Virus genome (UHGV): UHGV-0131723
Strand: one strand, 5' to 3'
DNA: 41,571 nt
DNA from: a virus
The notes under the pieces: generated by a model
Seen by the model: only the letters and a program-made list of their open reading frames with translations
The model's database searches: none
Told to the model about the DNA's origin: nothing
Shown: positions 10,926 through 38,360 of the stretch, one piece after another
Layout: the number at the start of each line of letters is the position of its first letter
How positions within the stretch are numbered: the first letter of the stretch is position 1
Made by a program: the position numbers and the translations under genes

Positions 10926-10941
10926 TAAGTAATTCTCTTAA

Positions 10942-10966
10942 AAGGCTGCTTCGGCGGCCTTTTTTA
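10942..10966 (+). terminator. Rho-independent terminator
   Basis: GGCTGC-TTCG-GCGGCC followed by TTTTTT. Confidence 0.65.
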
Positions 10967-10967
10967 T

Positions 10968-11003
10968 TTGTATTTTGTGCAGAGTGCTGTATAATTGTTG
11001 TCA
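10968..11003 (+). promoter_or_regulatory. Putative promoter
   Basis: TTGTAT-N16-TATAAT; contains TTTGTGCAG motif also repeated at 15.2 kb. Confidence 0.4.
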
Positions 11004-12732: not shown

Positions 12733-12758
12733 TACAGGCTCCTTCGGGAGCCTTTTTC
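12733..12758 (+). terminator. Rho-independent terminator
   Basis: GGCTCC-TTCG-GGAGCC followed by TTTTT. Confidence 0.65.
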
Positions 12759-12776
12759 ATTTCAGGAGATTGTTAA

Positions 12777-14297: not shown

Positions 14298-15077
14298 ATG
14301 GGTATTGTAAAAGTTGTAAAAGGTAACTTACTGGCTGCCTTCAAAAACACAGATATTGAGTTAATTGCTCATGGTTGCAACTGTCGTAACCTCATGGGTG
14401 CTGGAATCGCTCAAAAAATTGCTAAGATTTTCCCAAAAGCTGAAGAAGCTGACCGGAAATTCCATAAAAAGTTTGGCTACAGTGCTCATGATATCGGATA
14501 CCAGATGGTTGGTGAGGTGTCACATGCTCGAACGGAGTATGGTTACATTTTTAACCTATATACACAGTTGGATGTTGGGAAGTGTGCATCATACCGATAC
14601 TTAGTGGAGTCACTAGAAAAACTCCGTAAATTTTGCTGGCTGCACAACATTCGTAAGATTGGTTTACCCATGATTGGGGCAGGTATAGGCGGTTTAGATG
14701 CACAAGCTGTGAAAAGCCTCATTAATAGTGTTATGTATAACGTTGATGTGTACCTCTACGTCTATGATGAAGCAATGGCAAGTGTAGTTACCCCTAAGTA
14801 TGCTACCTCAGCACCACAATTCTATGATGGTGTCGTGCTAAGTGACGGGAAGACTAATCAAGTTACCCTCTATCAGCTTGTTGATGGCAAGGTTGAGGTT
14901 AGTTACCCTCTGGTTAGTGAGATGGGTATGTGTAACAGTGAAATGTTCCCAGTTGACCCGTTTGGAAGATATGAAGGGGTGTTCTTTGATAACTACCCAG
15001 CAGCATACATCTACACAACAAATCAGGATGAAGTTCACTACTTGCTGTATTCTAAAAAGTTCAAATTCATAAGCTGA
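14298..15077 (+). CDS. Macro-domain-like protein (possible ADP-ribose binding/processing)
   Basis: N-terminal IAHGCNCRNLMGAGIAQ resembles the macro-domain glycine-rich ADP-ribose loop; assignment by memory only. Confidence 0.5.
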   Translation: MGIVKVVKGNLLAAFKNTDIELIAHGCNCRNLMGAGIAQKIAKIFPKAEEADRKFHKKFGYSAHDIGYQMVGEVSHARTEYGYIFNLYTQLDVGKCASYRYLVESLEKLRKFCWLHNIRKIGLPMIGAGIGGLDAQAVKSLINSVMYNVDVYLYVYDEAMASVVTPKYATSAPQFYDGVVLSDGKTNQVTLYQLVDGKVEVSYPLVSEMGMCNSEMFPVDPFGRYEGVFFDNYPAAYIYTTNQDEVHYLLYSKKFKFIS

Positions 15078-15111
15078 TTAGCACTTCATAGTATCTACAA
15101 ATCATCTAAGA

Positions 15112-15157
15112 AGGCTGCCTAACCCATTGAAAAATTTAAGGTAAGGCGGCCTTTTTC
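15112..15157 (+). terminator. Putative terminator
   Basis: AGGCTGCC...GGCGGCCT stem with long loop, followed by TTTTT. Confidence 0.45.
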
Positions 15158-15300
15158 ATTTTCAATTTGTGCAGGTATCTGTAGGGGTCTGTACAGATAT
15201 CCCAAAAAATCTCATCGCCGGATAGAAAAATCATTTTCAAAACGTGCAGACCCCGCTCAGGTCGGGCAAGAAAAATCATTTTAGAATTGTGCAGGTAGGT
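15157..15300 (+). repeat. Three copies of TCATTTT-N6-8-(T/C)GTGCAG(G/A) motif
   Basis: cattttcaatttgtgcagg, atcattttcaaaacgtgcaga, atcattttagaattgtgcagg; related copy at 10970-10982. Confidence 0.5.
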
Positions 15301-15317
15301 TTTTATAGAGAGCCAGA

Positions 15318-15352
15318 CCAACCCCTCTCCCCCTCTTACTCCCCCTCTCCCT
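15318..15352 (+). repeat. Polypyrimidine C-rich tract
   Basis: cccctctccccctcttactccccctctccct; atypical for this AT-rich genome. Confidence 0.6.
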
Positions 15353-15474
15353 AAAAGTCAAGAGAAAAATTTGTAGCGGATTGAAAAATAATTCTTGATT
15401 TGTGTTCTGTTTTGTGGTAGTCGTGTGCGCCCGTTTCATTACAGTTTTGCCAAAAATATTTTTAAAATTTTTCT

Positions 15475-15565
15475 TGACTCTTTGAGTGTGGTTATCTAAT
15501 ATTTGCATCAACGGGGAGGGAATGACCTTCCCCACTAAATAAAGTCCTAAACTGGGGATTCAAAA
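15475..15565 (+). promoter_or_regulatory. Type A cassette: promoter + 5' hairpin + RBS
   Basis: TTGACT-N17-TAATAT, then ATCAACGGGGAGGGAATGACCTTCCCCACTAAATAAAGTCCTAAACTGGGGATTC before ATG. Confidence 0.6.
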
Positions 15566-22299: not shown

Positions 22300-22386
22300 G
22301 GGGCTTTAAAGTTACGTAAAAGGGGCTATAAAGTTACGTAAAAGGGGCTATAAAGTTACGTAAATGCTAGCCCCCTTAACATTTTC
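22300..22386. repeat. Four tandem copies of a 22-bp unit
   Basis: GGGGCT(T/A)TAAAGTTACGTAAAA x4, head to tail. Confidence 0.8.
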
Positions 22387-23350
22387 TTAACAATTTCTTA
22401 ACAATCCCTACATAGTTATGCTTTTAAGGCACTTGTTAGCAACTTGTTAGCCCCTTGTTAAATCTCTGTTAAAACCACGTAAAAGCCTTGTAAGAACCTT
22501 TGACATAGCCTTTAAAGCCCCTGTAAAGCCCTATAAAGAGGTATCTGTACAGTTGGGGTGTAATTACTAGGAAGAGGTTTAAAAGAGCTTACAAGGGGCT
22601 ATAGAGAGCTTTTAAGAGGTATGTTTAAAGAATCACTAAGAAAGGAAAGGGAACGATAAGGAAAGAGTAGTGACCATGTTAATAGATTGTTAAAAAGATT
22701 AAACACTTGTTAGAAACTTGTTAATTATCTTAACAAAATAACTCTTAAAAATTAACTTGTTAGCTCTTGTTAGTCATCTGTTAAGATTCTGTAAAGCCTA
22801 TTCAGCACTTGTTAGAAAACTGTTACGCTCTTGTTAGTTCTGTTAAGAATCTGTTAAGACCTTTGAAGAGATGTTAAGAAGATGTAGTAACTGTTAAGAG
22901 ATTGTTAAGGATATTTTAAAATTTTGCAAAGTACTTGTAAGGGAGCTGTTAAGGGCTACCAAGCAGATATACATCTTCTACAGATATTTTTCAGTTCCTT
23001 CAAAGACCCTAAAAAATGACTTGATAGTCCTATTTTATAAAAATTTTAAAAATCTGAATAATTACCTATACAGTCTTTCTAAAATACAGGTAATAACAGG
23101 CTTATAAGATACCTTGTTAGTACCGTGTTAGACCTTGTGAGATAAGGCCTGTAAAGATATTCCTGTTAAGTTTGTTAAAACAGTCTATATAGAGGCTTAG
23201 TAGCACCTAGTGAACACCTATAGAGAGTGTCATAGCTGACATAGAGATTAAGAGGTGTATAGGAGCTTCTAAGAGTGTATAGAGAGATGGTTAAGGTGAT
23301 TGTATAGGTTGTTAAGAAGGCTTGTTAGAGGGCTTGTTAGAAGGATTATA
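22380..23350. repeat. Dispersed short-repeat field
   Basis: More than 25 copies of (C)TTGTTA(G/A)/CTGTTAAG (some inverted as CTTAACAA), often 8-12 bp apart. Confidence 0.7.
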
Positions 23351-35697: not shown

Positions 35698-35772
35698 GCA
35701 TCCATAGTTTAAACGGGAAAATTACAGTCTTCCAAACTGAGGTTGAGGGTTCGATTCCCTCTGGATGCTCCA
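35698..35772 (+). tRNA. tRNA-Gly (UCC)
   Basis: Acceptor GCATCCA/TGGATGC; loop CTTCCAA; T-arm GAGGGTTCGATTCCCTC. Confidence 0.7.
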
Positions 35773-35778
35773 AACAAT

Positions 35779-35855
35779 GCTGCTTTCGTATAATTGGCTA
35801 TTACACATCCCTTGTAAGGATGGAAATGCAGGTTCGAGTCCTGTGAGCAGCACCA
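35779..35855 (+). tRNA. tRNA-Thr (UGU)
   Basis: Anticodon stem CATCC/GGATG, loop CTTGTAA. Confidence 0.7.
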
Positions 35856-35950
35856 ATTCAGAGGCCAAGTGAAAGACCGCTGGTGTCAACTGAAGACCGT
35901 AACAAATTCCACGGAGTTGAGTTAGCGGCACAACTTCAGACCTCTTTCAC

Positions 35951-36025
35951 ACTCGCTTAGTTTATATGGTAAAACATCACCCTTACAAGATGAAGAAAAA
36001 GGTTCAAGTCCTTTAGTGAGTACCA
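35951..36025 (+). tRNA. tRNA-Val (UAC)
   Basis: Loop CTTACAA; T-arm AAAGGTTCAAGTCCTTT; CCA encoded. Confidence 0.6.
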
Positions 36026-36026
36026 T

Positions 36027-36104
36027 GTTCCAGTATCCCAATTGGCAGAGGATGCAAGCTCAAACCTTGTACTAGTGACGGTTCGAATCCGTCTTGGAAC
36101 ACCA
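36027..36104 (+). tRNA. tRNA with CAA anticodon (Leu by code), short variable arm
   Basis: Anticodon stem GCAAG/CTTGT, loop CTCAAAC; discriminator A; 78 nt. Confidence 0.5.
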
Positions 36105-36109
36105 ATTTT

Positions 36110-36185
36110 GCAGGATTAGTTCAAATGGATAGAGCAACAGTCTACGAAGCTGTTAATAGGGGTTCGAATCCCTTATCCTGCGCCA
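36110..36185 (+). tRNA. tRNA-Arg (ACG)
   Basis: D-arm GTTC/GAGC; loop CTACGAA; CCA encoded. Confidence 0.7.
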
Positions 36186-36203
36186 GATAAGCAAGAGGAA
36201 TTT

Positions 36204-36446
36204 ATGCAAACATTAATCGTCGTTGAACATGAAAATCCCAATAGTATTGAGTTTGTAAGGGTTCCCACTATAGATACCCACATTTTCTTGAAAGTCGGAT
36301 GGGAATGCGACCCAATAAAAGTAGAAAGATTTATTGGTCATTGCTTTGGTGGAAGACAACTTAAAAGCATCAATTTTGAGACAATGTTACCAGAAAGCTC
36401 AGAAACAAATAATAATGCTTACCTCCTTACGAGGGTTAGACAATGA
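36204..36446 (+). CDS. Hypothetical protein embedded in tRNA cluster
   Basis: ORF track; AGAGGAA RBS. Confidence 0.5.
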   Translation: MQTLIVVEHENPNSIEFVRVPTIDTHIFLKVGWECDPIKVERFIGHCFGGRQLKSINFETMLPESSETNNNAYLLTRVRQ

Positions 36447-37000
36447 GATACTTAAAATATGTTTCATGGATTTTCTTAGCTTTGTTAGAACCATTTGCAG
36501 CAACCCTAGCAGTCATCTTAGCACCTTTCGTAGTTCCATCCTACAGTGAGAAGAAAGGACACTTACCTTTCGGGTTCAGATGGATGGAGACCTATGACAA
36601 CCCAATTGATGGTGATGAAGGTCACGTTAAAAGATGGGCTAATATTAGATGGATTGGTAAGCTGGGTGTCTACATGCAGAGAGTTGGATGGCTCTGGAGA
36701 AACAAAGCTTATAACTTCTCTTACCATGTATTAGGAAGAGATGTAAAAGATGTTACTAAGTGGAAAGGTAATATCAACGTAAGTTCTGACCCCGAAGATA
36801 ATCAGACAGGTTATCTCCTAATGTGGAACAGTAATGCTTGGGGATTATTCGCTTTTATCCCATCAATTAAAATCTTTGGTAAACAATTTTACTGGAGAAT
36901 TTATATTGGATGGAAACTAAAAAGTGTTGTCCCAGAAGAAAGAGCATTCTCAAGGGAAAGAGTTATGTTGGCATTCTTTATTCATCCACTGAGAAAGTAA
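36443..37000 (+). CDS. Hypothetical membrane protein embedded in tRNA cluster
   Basis: ORF track; N-terminal hydrophobic segment; ATGA overlap with upstream ORF. Confidence 0.5.
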   Translation: MRYLKYVSWIFLALLEPFAATLAVILAPFVVPSYSEKKGHLPFGFRWMETYDNPIDGDEGHVKRWANIRWIGKLGVYMQRVGWLWRNKAYNFSYHVLGRDVKDVTKWKGNINVSSDPEDNQTGYLLMWNSNAWGLFAFIPSIKIFGKQFYWRIYIGWKLKSVVPEERAFSRERVMLAFFIHPLRK

Positions 37001-37008
37001 AGATTTAA

Positions 37009-37084
37009 AGGGGATTAGTTTACAAGGTTAAAACCTCGGTCTTTGAAATCGAAGAAGTTGGTTCAATTCCAACATCCCCCGCCA
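37009..37084 (+). tRNA. tRNA-Gln (UUG)
   Basis: Loop CTTTGAA; T-arm GTTGGTTCAATTCCAAC; 1:72 A-C mismatch. Confidence 0.65.
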
Positions 37085-37086
37085 AT

Positions 37087-37165
37087 GCTCCATTACTCCA
37101 ATTGGCAGAGAGGCCAGACTTAAAATCTGTGTTATGTATCGGTTCGAATCCGATATGGAGTACCA
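37087..37165 (+). tRNA. tRNA with UAA anticodon (Leu by code), short variable arm
   Basis: Loop CTTAAAA; T-arm ATCGGTTCGAATCCGAT; discriminator A; 79 nt. Confidence 0.5.
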
Positions 37166-37170
37166 AATTT

Positions 37171-37246
37171 AGCGGTATAGCATAACTGGCAATGCAGCAG
37201 CCTCTGAAGCTGTCCTATTAAGGTTCAAATCCTTATGCCGCTGCCA
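37171..37246 (+). tRNA. tRNA-Gln (CUG)
   Basis: D-arm GCAT/ATGC; anticodon stem GCAGC/GCTGT, loop CTCTGAA. Confidence 0.65.
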
Positions 37247-37277
37247 CTTCTAAGGATTCTTGCGAGAGTCCTTAAAT

Positions 37278-37353
37278 GTGGCCTTATCATAAATGGTAAT
37301 GACCCATGCTGTGAACATGGTCTATACGGGTTCAAATCCCGTAGGTCACCCCA
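37278..37353 (+). tRNA. tRNA-His (GUG)
   Basis: Anticodon stem CCATG/CATGG, loop CTGTGAA; discriminator C. Confidence 0.7.
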
Positions 37354-37359
37354 ATTTAT

Positions 37360-37435
37360 AGTCCAAGTAGCTTATATGGTTAAAGCGCGTGTCTGAAAAA
37401 CATGAGAAGAGGGTTCAAATCCCACTGGACTACCA
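37360..37435 (+). tRNA. tRNA-Phe (GAA)
   Basis: D-arm GCTT/AAGC; anticodon stem CGTGT/ACATG, loop CTGAAAA; acceptor register uncertain by 1 nt. Confidence 0.55.
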
Positions 37436-37451
37436 ATTTCAAAGGTGCTTA

Positions 37452-38186
37452 ATGAAAGAGATGACAGAACAAGGTAAGGAGATTTTTAATCTCTTAAAAA
37501 CCGGTAAAGGGTTCTCTAACCCACTTATTACTGGTGCAGCAGTTCTCGGTGGAACCGTAGCTGCTTCTACATCACTTGTAAGCTCTATTAGTTCTGTAAC
37601 AGACCCTACAATGAAGGAGAAACTTGTTGCTGCTGGACTTACAACAGTCCTTCTAAACAGCTTTACAACAAGCCTGACAAGCACTACAGCAACTACTAAG
37701 ACCCTAACAGAATATGGTCAAAAGTCTATTGATGAGTTTTCATCACGTATGCAGGTAGCAAAGGGATACTCCAATGTTATGGGTGCAGCAGGAGAACAAG
37801 TTGGTTGTACACCATTCAGTGGTATTATGGGTGTTGCTACAGAATATGGTCAAAAAGCTATTGACATGATGAACAGTACACTAGATAGTGTTAATGGTGT
37901 GTTAAGTGACTTACAAGATGCTATTGACAAAGGTCTTGATACTATTTCTGATTTAGCTAACCAAGCTGTTAGTAAGATTAATGAAGGTATTTCGAAGATT
38001 ACAGCTTATGCAGATGAAGTTGTGCAGATGATTGAAGAAGAAGCTGCTCTTATTGCAGAGTACCTTAAAACGAATATCAATGGGTTCTTAGCAGGTATCT
38101 TACCAGACTGGTTTGATGATGCTTGTAAAACTGGTGTGATTGACACTATTGCAACACCAGAAATGAAGAACGCATTACAGAAATAA
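37452..38186 (+). CDS. Hypothetical protein with internal repeat
   Basis: ORF-track GTG start at 37389 lies inside tRNA-Phe; first ATG after AAAGGTG RBS is 37452; repeat TEYGQKSIDEF.../TEYGQKAIDMM... Confidence 0.5.
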   Translation: MKEMTEQGKEIFNLLKTGKGFSNPLITGAAVLGGTVAASTSLVSSISSVTDPTMKEKLVAAGLTTVLLNSFTTSLTSTTATTKTLTEYGQKSIDEFSSRMQVAKGYSNVMGAAGEQVGCTPFSGIMGVATEYGQKAIDMMNSTLDSVNGVLSDLQDAIDKGLDTISDLANQAVSKINEGISKITAYADEVVQMIEEEAALIAEYLKTNINGFLAGILPDWFDDACKTGVIDTIATPEMKNALQK

Positions 38187-38187
38187 T

Positions 38188-38280
38188 GGAAGATTAACCC
38201 TAAAAGGTAAGGGAGCAGTTTGCTAAACTGCCAGTAGCTGAGAAATCGGTGTACCAGTTCAAGTCTGGTATCTTCCTCCA
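38188..38280 (+). tRNA. tRNA-Ser (GCU), long variable arm
   Basis: 93 nt; anticodon stem GCAGT/ACTGC, loop TTGCTAA; T-arm ACCAGTTCAAGTCTGGT. Confidence 0.7.
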
Positions 38281-38284
38281 ATTT

Positions 38285-38360
38285 GAATCCGTGACAGAAA
38301 TGGCTATGTGCCTGTCTGCAAAACAGGTTTATAAGGGTTCGAGTCCCTTCGGATTCTCCA
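38285..38360 (+). tRNA. tRNA-Cys (GCA)
   Basis: Anticodon stem CCTGT/ACAGG, loop CTGCAAA; discriminator U; CCA encoded. Confidence 0.7.

Follow-up and report, generated by a model that had tools for sequence, protein, structure and literature searches.

The intergenic region between the macro-domain gene and the small early genes of Felix O1-like phages holds an array of co-oriented direct repeats, which is an ancestral four-copy element that occurs throughout the subfamily Ounavirinae at one locus per genome. Judging from its sequence conservation, the array is under purifying selection. Its repeats are probably an array of sites for a sequence-specific DNA-binding protein, a reading suggested by two invariant blocks spaced about a helical turn apart, by the asymmetry and co-orientation of the sites, by the presence of three to five copies at one locus, and by the purifying selection that appears to act on them. 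As for the process that such a protein would serve, our leading specific guess, which is a tentative one, is the initiation of DNA replication, and a role as operator or roadblock in transcription is nearly as likely. It was noted that no description of an Ounavirinae replication origin, of Ounavirinae transcription start sites, or of this element was found in the literature searched. The direct repeats given in the Felix O1 genome paper are different ones and do not include these (PMC3185647), the paper on phage UAB_Phi87 contains no description of the array (PMC4837284), and a PhageMaP screen of the relative Bas63 targeted genes only; the array appears to be undescribed as far as we have searched.

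Repeats downstream of the macro-domain gene

The window, meaning the whole stretch of viral DNA that was analyzed (UHGV-0131723; 41,571 nucleotides), belongs to a Felixounavirus. The region around the array shares 99.5% identity with Escherichia phage ECML-1 and 98.7% with Salmonella phage BPS17L1, and it matches approximately 290 Felix O1-like (Ounavirinae) records. The left neighbor of the array is a T4 Tk.4-like macro-domain gene on the + strand (14298-15077; Pfam Macro, E 1.2e-6), which is annotated as a 'phosphatase' and which holds the same place in every lineage examined, including Felixounavirus, Suspvirus, Mooglevirus, Kolesnikvirus, and the divergent contig L036. The gap between this gene and the first small early gene extends over 15078-15565 and is non-coding; its length of 488 bp agrees with the approximately 490 bp given in a first-pass annotation of the window. 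Read from left to right, the locus consists of the macro-gene terminator, the array, a G/C-skewed variable tract, and back-to-back promoter-like elements, and to the right of the gap small early genes follow one another, each under a promoter of its own. The array locus forms the inner edge of this variable small-early-gene block, which reaches the right terminal repeat. Which gene comes first on the right of the array varies among phages and is not conserved, indicating that the array is not tied to one downstream gene.

Within the gap, the motif TCATTTT-N6-GTGCAG was found in three copies, all co-oriented, at 15156-15174, 15231-15249, and 15276-15294, compared to 0.02 copies expected by chance, and none of 100 shuffles reached three. 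The three repeat copies claimed in the first-pass annotation were thus confirmed; the spacer of six to eight nucleotides that it gave for them had to be corrected, being exactly 6 nt in all three. Copy 1 (+ strand, 15149-15177, with its core at 15156-15174; GCCTTTTTCATTTTCAATTTGTGCAGGTA) scored 38.8 bits in the PWM scan and is kept in all genera. The second copy of the window (+ strand, 15224-15252, core 15231-15249; AGAAAAATCATTTTCAAAACGTGCAGACC; 30.2 bits) corresponds to ancestral copy 3 and the third (+ strand, 15269-15297, core 15276-15294; AGAAAAATCATTTTAGAATTGTGCAGGTA; 35.0 bits) to ancestral copy 4, ancestral copy 2 having been lost from the window via a 31-bp deletion between 15178 and 15223. 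The third copy of the window comprises the best-conserved 20 nt of the locus (column conservation 0.96) and is matched at 91% even in Erwinia and Hafnia phages. A fifth, degenerate repeat (family D1; GAAAAATAATTCTTGATTTGTG) was identified at 15383-15404, where it overlaps a rightward promoter-like element.

In its general form, the repeat core TCATTT(T/C)-N6-GTGCA adjoins a 5-nt A/T run and is embedded in units of 37-45 bp. The sites are non-palindromic and comprise two invariant blocks about one helical turn apart, with a variable spacer of fixed length between them. The suggestion that the repeats are regulator binding sites, which had been offered at first reading as one of two possibilities, fits what can be read of the anatomy of the array, namely its invariant blocks, fixed spacer, co-orientation, and subfamily-wide conservation.

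Distribution and conservation of the array

Four copies were found at the same position after the macro-gene terminator in Felix O1, wV8, and KhF1 (Felixounavirus) as well as in Suspvirus, Mooglevirus, and Kolesnikvirus (Erwinia/Hafnia phages), and three copies in the lineage of the window (BPS17L1, ECML-1, and Si3). The spacings between successive copies are 73/39/45 in Felixounavirus, 75/41/45 in Suspvirus and Mooglevirus, and 37/37/39 in Kolesnikvirus. Five copies follow the macro gene of L036, a divergent 88-kb metagenomic phage without nucleotide similarity to known Ounavirinae beyond the motif, whose GenBank nucleotide matches were limited to weak ones of its macro gene to T4-like phages. 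Across all of the genomes compared, TCATTT(T/C) and GTGCA are invariant, and the changes fall in the N6, in the inter-unit DNA, and in the left-hand box of each unit. Each copy separately retains these invariant bases across genera whose flanking genes are so diverged that they can barely be aligned as nucleotides. Within the Felixounavirus/Suspvirus/Mooglevirus set, column conservation was 0.91-0.97 for the repeat blocks and for a further block at 15356-15395, 0.70-0.92 per 20-nt bin for the macro gene, and 0.53-0.85 for the cassette gene, such that these non-coding blocks are conserved equally to or more than the genes on either side of them.

The genome-wide motif search that had been proposed as a check was run on the window and on the complete BPS17L1 genome (84,916 bp; 98.7% identical). 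Both regex and PWM scans recovered the motif at the array locus only (30-39 bits) and no dispersed class of sites; the next-best PWM match in BPS17L1 scored 14 bits, a value that shuffled sequences also reach. Apart from the array, non-coding repeats cluster in this genome only in the terminal-repeat region. A two-copy pattern was then scanned in IMG/VR, in GTDB genomes representing 185,579 bacterial and archaeal species (one per species), and in JGI metagenomes, and it was found only in Ounavirinae-like contigs of approximately 85-94 kb and in unrelated perfect tandem repeats, with none of the matches lying in an enterobacterial genome. The match in one contig (L028) was rejected as an array, as it is an unrelated repeat of 2 x 60 bp.

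A fourth copy of the motif had been proposed downstream of rIIB, and a motif-like sequence does exist there (10964-10982; TTATTTGTATTTTGTGCAG). However, it is a weak match, scoring 14 bits compared to 30-39 bits for the array and falling inside the range of shuffled genomes (mean 9, maximum 20). This site, T[T]ATTT[G]-N6-GTGCAG, covers positions -38 to -20, that is the -35 element and spacer, of a sigma-70-like promoter with a perfect TATAAT, which is annotated as a promoter in one GenBank record (phage ASO1B) and is conserved in Mooglevirus Sf14.

Signals flanking the array

The intrinsic terminator of the macro gene (+ strand, 15108-15160) has a T-tail that runs into copy 1. Its hairpin (15108-15156; -23.3 kcal/mol, z -4.9) is followed by T5, in agreement with the terminator that had been placed ahead of the repeats at first reading. 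An equivalent terminator was also called in Felix O1 and SP116, and it matches Felix O1 t13, the most stable entry in the published terminator table (PMC3185647). The + strand RNA hairpin looks to be the selected form of this stem, since the G-U wobbles of the Felix O1 stem would be C-A mismatches on the other strand.

On the other side of the array, a leftward promoter-like element was read from the sequence of the - strand at 15333-15361, with a -35 of TTGACT (15361-15356), a 17-nt spacer, and a -10 of TAAGAG (15338-15333). This element would send transcription into the array, which we infer only, as the consensus scan called no such promoter in the window or in SP116. The SP116-type allele, which is not homologous, has retained an identical hexamer-17-hexamer geometry (TTGACT-17-TAGTCT/TAGCCT, TGG lying immediately upstream), the TAC of 15337-15339 does not vary among the 8 aligned genomes, and in Kolesnikvirus a leftward promoter called by the tool (TTGACG-18-TATACT) lies to the right of the array.

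The alignment also revealed the most conserved non-coding block on the + strand (15356-15423), which holds the degenerate repeat and in which two back-to-back -35-like elements lie on either side of A/T-rich, nearly invariant DNA; column conservation was 0.96-0.97 at 15356-15395 and 0.88 at 15396-15435. Within this block, a rightward promoter-like element consists of TTGATT (15395-15400), 17 nt, and TAGTCG (15418-15423), preceded by TGG. The alignment suggests that it may act as a promoter; it was not called by the consensus promoter scan of the window. The consensus scan did call a strong sigma-70 promoter for the first early cassette gene (+ strand, 15474-15502; TTGACT-17-TAATAT), which has an A/T-rich upstream element at 15451-15473 and a TTGAC that is invariant in all genera.

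Possible functions of the array

We propose that three (ancestrally four) co-oriented bipartite recognition sites probably form an iteron-like array for a putative DNA-binding protein, and that the array is a single-copy cis element of the Ounavirinae and part of a fixed control region. On our tentative leading guess, a protein bound to the array would assemble a nucleoprotein complex that starts DNA replication, and this candidate origin would be helped by transcription coming in from the adjacent leftward promoter. The guess at an origin agrees with the iteron-like layout, with a promoter that points inward, with the fact that neither an origin nor an initiator has been described for a phage with a T7 gp4-like primase-helicase, and with the G/C-skewed, structure-prone tract that is present in many lineages. 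Iteron origins are recognized by at least three direct repeats of approximately 17-22 bp, in one orientation and at a single locus, and the array conforms to this with three to five copies. As in the origins of lambda (ori), P1 (oriR), F, R6K, and pPS10, these direct repeats have a core of approximately 19-22 bp and share one orientation, and the array is found at a single locus per genome, in non-coding DNA, and beside promoters. The lambda ori contains four 19-bp O-protein sites, and two-domain initiators (RepA/RepE/pi) bind two conserved blocks about one helical turn apart, as are found in the array sites. We recognized no sequence similarity between the array and any iteron known to us.

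Unlike iteron origins, however, the array has units that lie 37-45 bp apart and are not contiguous, and it lacks an adjacent AT-rich unwinding element, DnaA boxes, a recognizable Rep/O-type initiator gene, and a GC-skew signal. In a nearest-neighbor stability profile, no AT-rich unwinding element was found beside the array, and the stability of the array duplex was average or above; the least stable DNA of the window lies at 22.7-23.5 kb, and within the locus, AT-rich DNA is confined to the upstream element of the cassette promoter, approximately 150 bp from the array. No inflection of GC skew was detected at the locus, the skew being positive on both sides and following gene orientation, and GC skew is a weak indicator of origins in phages. 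Neither DnaA boxes (TTWTNCACA) nor conserved inverted repeats were found in the array. The spacings of 37-45 and 73-75 bp show no helical phasing and are wider than those of classic iteron origins. The replisome of the phage is T7 gp4-like (Toprim + DnaB_C) and comes without an annotated initiator, and T7-type replisomes classically start from promoter-based, not iteron-based, origins. A scan of ten proteins yielded only the T7 gp4-like primase-helicase and a Cro/C1-type HTH protein, and no candidate binder; Cro/C1-type HTH proteins are expected to favor palindromic sites. The origin reading is weakened by this combination of wide unphased spacing with the lack of an unwinding element, a skew signal, DnaA boxes, and a candidate binder. 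In a comparison by eye, none of the consensuses for sigma-54, CRP, IHF, Fur, LexA, NtrC, the marbox, the DnaA box, ops, and boxA appeared to fit both blocks at their spacing.

The foremost alternative to a replication origin, and one that we hold to be a real if doubtful possibility, is a transcription-control array, whose regulator sites would act as an operator/decoy, an insulator, or a polar roadblock. In the last case, it is possible that the array stops read-through from the macro operon or leftward antisense transcription at the border of the early cassettes. The array lies directly after the most stable published terminator of Felix O1 and upstream of the back-to-back promoter-like elements and the first strong early promoter, its co-orientation suits a polar function, and the phage encodes at least one HTH regulator. 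The related sequence at -38 to -20 of the rIIB-downstream promoter, conserved in Mooglevirus, and the degenerate fifth copy, which overlaps the -35-like TTGATT, point in the same direction. Tus-Ter arrays and the tandem Sal-box TTF-I sites that lie downstream of rRNA genes likewise consist of co-oriented asymmetric sites after a transcription unit and before the next promoter, a likeness that is purely architectural. Against a role in transcription, the nearest rightward promoter is 100-320 bp away from the sites and has no overlap with them, conservation does not extend to the gene downstream, and the score of the rIIB-proximal site is no better than chance. The idea that the repeats mark a boundary between transcription programs agrees with their position between a terminator and an early block, but the RT-PCR timing reported for Felix O1 shows no clean temporal switch across the locus (PMC3185647). 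The other possibility raised at first reading, a phage-specific promoter class in which each repeat would be read by a modified host RNA polymerase or a new sigma-like factor, is highly improbable and was not borne out. The motif is absent elsewhere in the 85-kb genome, and a motif present at one locus only, as it is in BPS17L1, cannot define a promoter class; the four tandem copies are 37-75 bp apart and none of them heads its own gene. Some copies do precede TAnnnT-like hexamers (e.g., GGTAGAGT, GGTAATCT, and GGTAGGTT in Felix O1), but the hexamers after GTGCA(GG) vary across genera (TAGAGT, TAATCT, ACCCCG, TCTAGA, TAGGGA, and others), and TAnnnT is not conserved. Neither the consensus scan nor reading of the sequence gave an acceptable -10 hexamer at sigma-70 spacing after any copy, and in the window locus the scan called the cassette promoter only. 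The run of A/T, TCATTTT, and A-rich spacer in the array resembles the UP-element consensus. Similar to sigma-70 and T4 MotA-dependent middle promoters, one motif-like sequence does lie within a plausible promoter, at -38 to -20 downstream of rIIB; unlike in those promoters, the array copies lack a usable -10 and are confined to a single locus, and the annotation contains no MotA/AsiA-like genes. The Felix O1 genome paper found no phage RNA polymerase and no proteins that modify the promoter specificity of the host polymerase, and it describes the temporal control of transcription as not understood (PMC3185647). An element acting at the RNA level appears improbable as well; it would be a leftward, unstructured ncRNA that starts from approximately 15333-15361, carries three to four CUGCAC-N6-AAAAUGA units with U/A runs, and works either as a sponge for a protein or in antisense to the macro gene at its 3' end. 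Two alleles share the geometry of the leftward promoter, a leftward promoter is called in Kolesnikvirus, and all of the repeats would be transcribed in one sense; however, there is no leftward terminator, and the -10 of the window (TAAGAG) is poor and was not called. Consensus folding in windows of 120 nt gave 0 to -4.8 kcal/mol on both strands, with no conserved structure, and the search of Rfam returned nothing at the gathering threshold, its sole match being the terminator hairpin (E 0.066; 21 bits compared to a threshold of 50). A structured RNA or Rfam family was rejected on the basis of these near-zero consensus folds and the lack of an Rfam match at threshold.

The position of the array relative to the genome end invites comparison with phage T5. 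A packaging or terminase site, or an injection stop of the T5 kind where the first-entering terminal gene block has its inner border, is very improbable for the array as such, and only marginally less so is the wider view that the array and the TTAACA-rich terminal repeat region make up a genome-end control system of the Ounavirinae. On that view, the array would mark the inner border of a first-entering, outward-transcribed block of host-takeover genes, and it might be either a T5-like pause signal for DNA entry or an origin at which the onset of replication is coupled to early transcription. Between the array and the right terminal repeat lie approximately 5.4-7.8 kb (6-9% of the genome), and this intervening block is made up of small early genes that have their own promoters and are read in the direction of the end. 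Approximately 7.2 kb separate the array from the TTAACA-rich terminal region here and approximately 7.4 kb in Kolesnikvirus M7, and in L036 the TTAACA-rich DNA comes directly after the array. The stop signal of T5 is also a conserved untranslated repeat region, and its Repeat Region 3 exceeds the neighboring ORFs in conservation, as the array does (10.1101/866236). Similarly, the array sits as a set of conserved untranslated repeats at the inner edge of a terminal small-early-gene block, at approximately 8% of the genome and 5.4-7.8 kb from the right end. The T5 region, however, occupies 1.2 kb within a terminal repeat of 10 kb and abounds in inverted repeats, palindromes, and DnaA boxes (Davison, bioRxiv 10.1101/866236), whereas the array measures approximately 0.2 kb, has direct repeats only, with neither paired DnaA boxes nor inverted repeats found in it, and lies 7 kb from a terminal repeat of 0.6 kb. 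The distance from the array to the end also varies between close relatives, and two-step DNA transfer has never been reported for Ounavirinae. The physical ends map approximately 7 kb away, which places the array too far off to be a cutting site. Terminal repeats have been determined as 581 bp in Pr103Blw by PhageTerm (PMC8303462) and as 608 bp in UAB_Phi87 by Bal31 digestion and run-off sequencing (PMC4837284). The former aligns to 22370-22960 of the window, and a terminal repeat or pac site at the array was rejected on this basis. The start of the KhF1 record inside the locus was rejected as a genome end too, being an assembly overlap with low-quality, N-containing sequence. It is also highly improbable that the array has no present function, either as a relic of tandem duplications of a terminator-tail/promoter module or as a small repeat-containing ORF on the - strand. 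The TTTTTCATTT part does resemble other terminator tails in the phage, and copy 1 has the look of a paralogous module to the element downstream of rIIB, but every copy keeps its invariant bases across genera despite the divergence of the flanking genes. Minus-strand frames of 64-78 codons cross the array in most of the genomes examined, and several GenBank records annotate ORFs there. However, no single frame carries all of the repeats, since spacings of 37, 41, and 73 bp shift the copies out of frame with one another. Where the - strand is read as Leu-His-x-x-Lys-Met, the third bases of CAC and AAA never vary and all six bases of the spacer do; invariant third-codon bases next to a variable spacer are the opposite of a coding pattern. 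A coding repeat or small ORF was rejected for both of these reasons, the copies being out of frame and their variation anti-coding.

For Felix O1 and related phages, which are classical in typing and biocontrol, the array is at present the best candidate for a cis-acting site in the control of their replication or transcription. For phage engineering, this implies that the array region should not be taken as a dispensable spacer or as the small ORFs annotated in GenBank. Genome-end control, as an entry pause or a transcription-coupled origin, would if true be a mechanism undescribed for the Ounavirinae.

A C-rich tract next to the array

Between the array and the back-to-back promoter-like elements, base counts and shuffles identified a C-rich, G-free tract on the + strand (15318-15352), which had been described at first reading as a polypyrimidine tract of 35 nt. 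Its composition is 32/35 pyrimidine, with 23 C, 0 G, and 3 A; the three A mean that it is no pure polypyrimidine run, but its richness in C is beyond chance, as the 23 C in 35 nt exceed the shuffle maximum of 20. Its - strand reads GGGAGAGGGGGAGTAAGAGGGGGAGAGGGG, which fits the G-quadruplex pattern, and the tract as a whole has the four runs of at least three G or C with loops of 1-7 nt that define a G-quadruplex or i-motif pattern. The C3+N1-7 x4 pattern occurs once in the window, compared to 0.015 expected, as CCCCTCTCCCCCTCTTACTCCCCCTCTCCC. This is the sole four-run C3+ pattern both in the window and in the complete 85-kb relative, in keeping with the earlier remark that the tract is unusual for the genome. 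A G-quadruplex element is not conserved among the relatives compared, the SP116-type and Kolesnikvirus genomes differing from the window: only a short C-rich stretch is found at this position in Kolesnikvirus. With column conservation of 0.64-0.72, the lowest in the locus, the C-rich tract is one of two alleles, the other being the unrelated G-rich/mixed segment that SP116-type Felixounaviruses have in its place.

Probable genome ends and the terminal-repeat region

Phage Pr103Blw carries an annotated 581-bp direct terminal repeat, and we found its homologue at positions 22370-22960 of the window, which therefore probably contains the physical ends of the genome. CTTAACA/TGTTAAG repeats, often with a period of 11 bp, were dense in this region (flanks 22.2-23.5 kb), where DNA stability also drops to its lowest in the window.

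We also examined the divergent 88-kb phage contig IMGVR_UViG_3300045988_063805 (L036), which has no close GenBank relative and carries five copies of the TCATTT(T/C)-N6-GTGCA motif after its macro-domain gene, at about 470-1030 on the - strand. Directly after this array comes TTAACA-rich DNA resembling the Felixounavirus terminal repeat. The window and Erwinia phage M7 also have a TTAACA-rich region of this kind, but approximately 7.2-7.4 kb further right.

Terminators, promoters and hairpins

The tail CTTTTTCATTT was common to two terminators of the window, at 12752-12762 and 15151-15161 (t5 and t13 in Felix O1), so that in repeat copy 1 the TCATTT half also serves as a terminator tail. The rIIB terminator leads into a promoter that has a perfect TATAAT at 10990-10995; positions -38 to -20 of this promoter resemble the repeat and read TTATTTG-N6-GTGCAG. 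The whole element (10940-10995), which is kept in Mooglevirus Sf14, looks like a paralogue of the module at 15138-15177 formed by the terminator and copy 1.

Adjoining the 31-bp deletion that took out repeat copy 2, a perfect 10-bp palindrome, TCTGTACAGA (15188-15197), arose in the window's lineage, and its Felix O1 counterpart is a direct repeat, TCTGTAGAGAAATCTATAGAGA. Further right, the interval from the first cassette promoter to its ribosome-binding site contains the hairpin GGGGAGGgaatgaCCTTCCCC (15512-15535). wV8 and SP116 have this hairpin too, but it is missing in Felix O1, where a different cassette follows. The hairpin is reminiscent of T4-type early gene cassettes, whose modules combine a promoter with a stem-loop.

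Alleles and annotated ORFs at the repeat array

Comparison with SP116, L021, L023, L024 and other relatives showed that the stretch just right of the final repeat (15298-15352) occurs as two unrelated alleles. The first is C-rich and conforms to the quadruplex pattern, and the second, with the sequence GGTGGGTGCAGGTGGGGATGTCGCC..., includes a partial extra GTGCAGGT. Both share TTGACT-17-TAnnnn on the - strand.

Several GenBank records annotate small ORFs over the repeat array and C-rich tract, including wV8 gene 13, ORF31-34 of Felix O1 (AF320576) and BPS17L1 gp012; in the window, the ORFs concerned lie at 15136-15321 and 15281-15535, both on the - strand. Judging by frame and substitution patterns, these ORFs are probably spurious.

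tRNA genes

A cluster of 25 tRNA genes was identified by ARAGORN at 33206-38360 on the + strand; Rfam recorded 24 tRNAs in this cluster, two of them barely above threshold.
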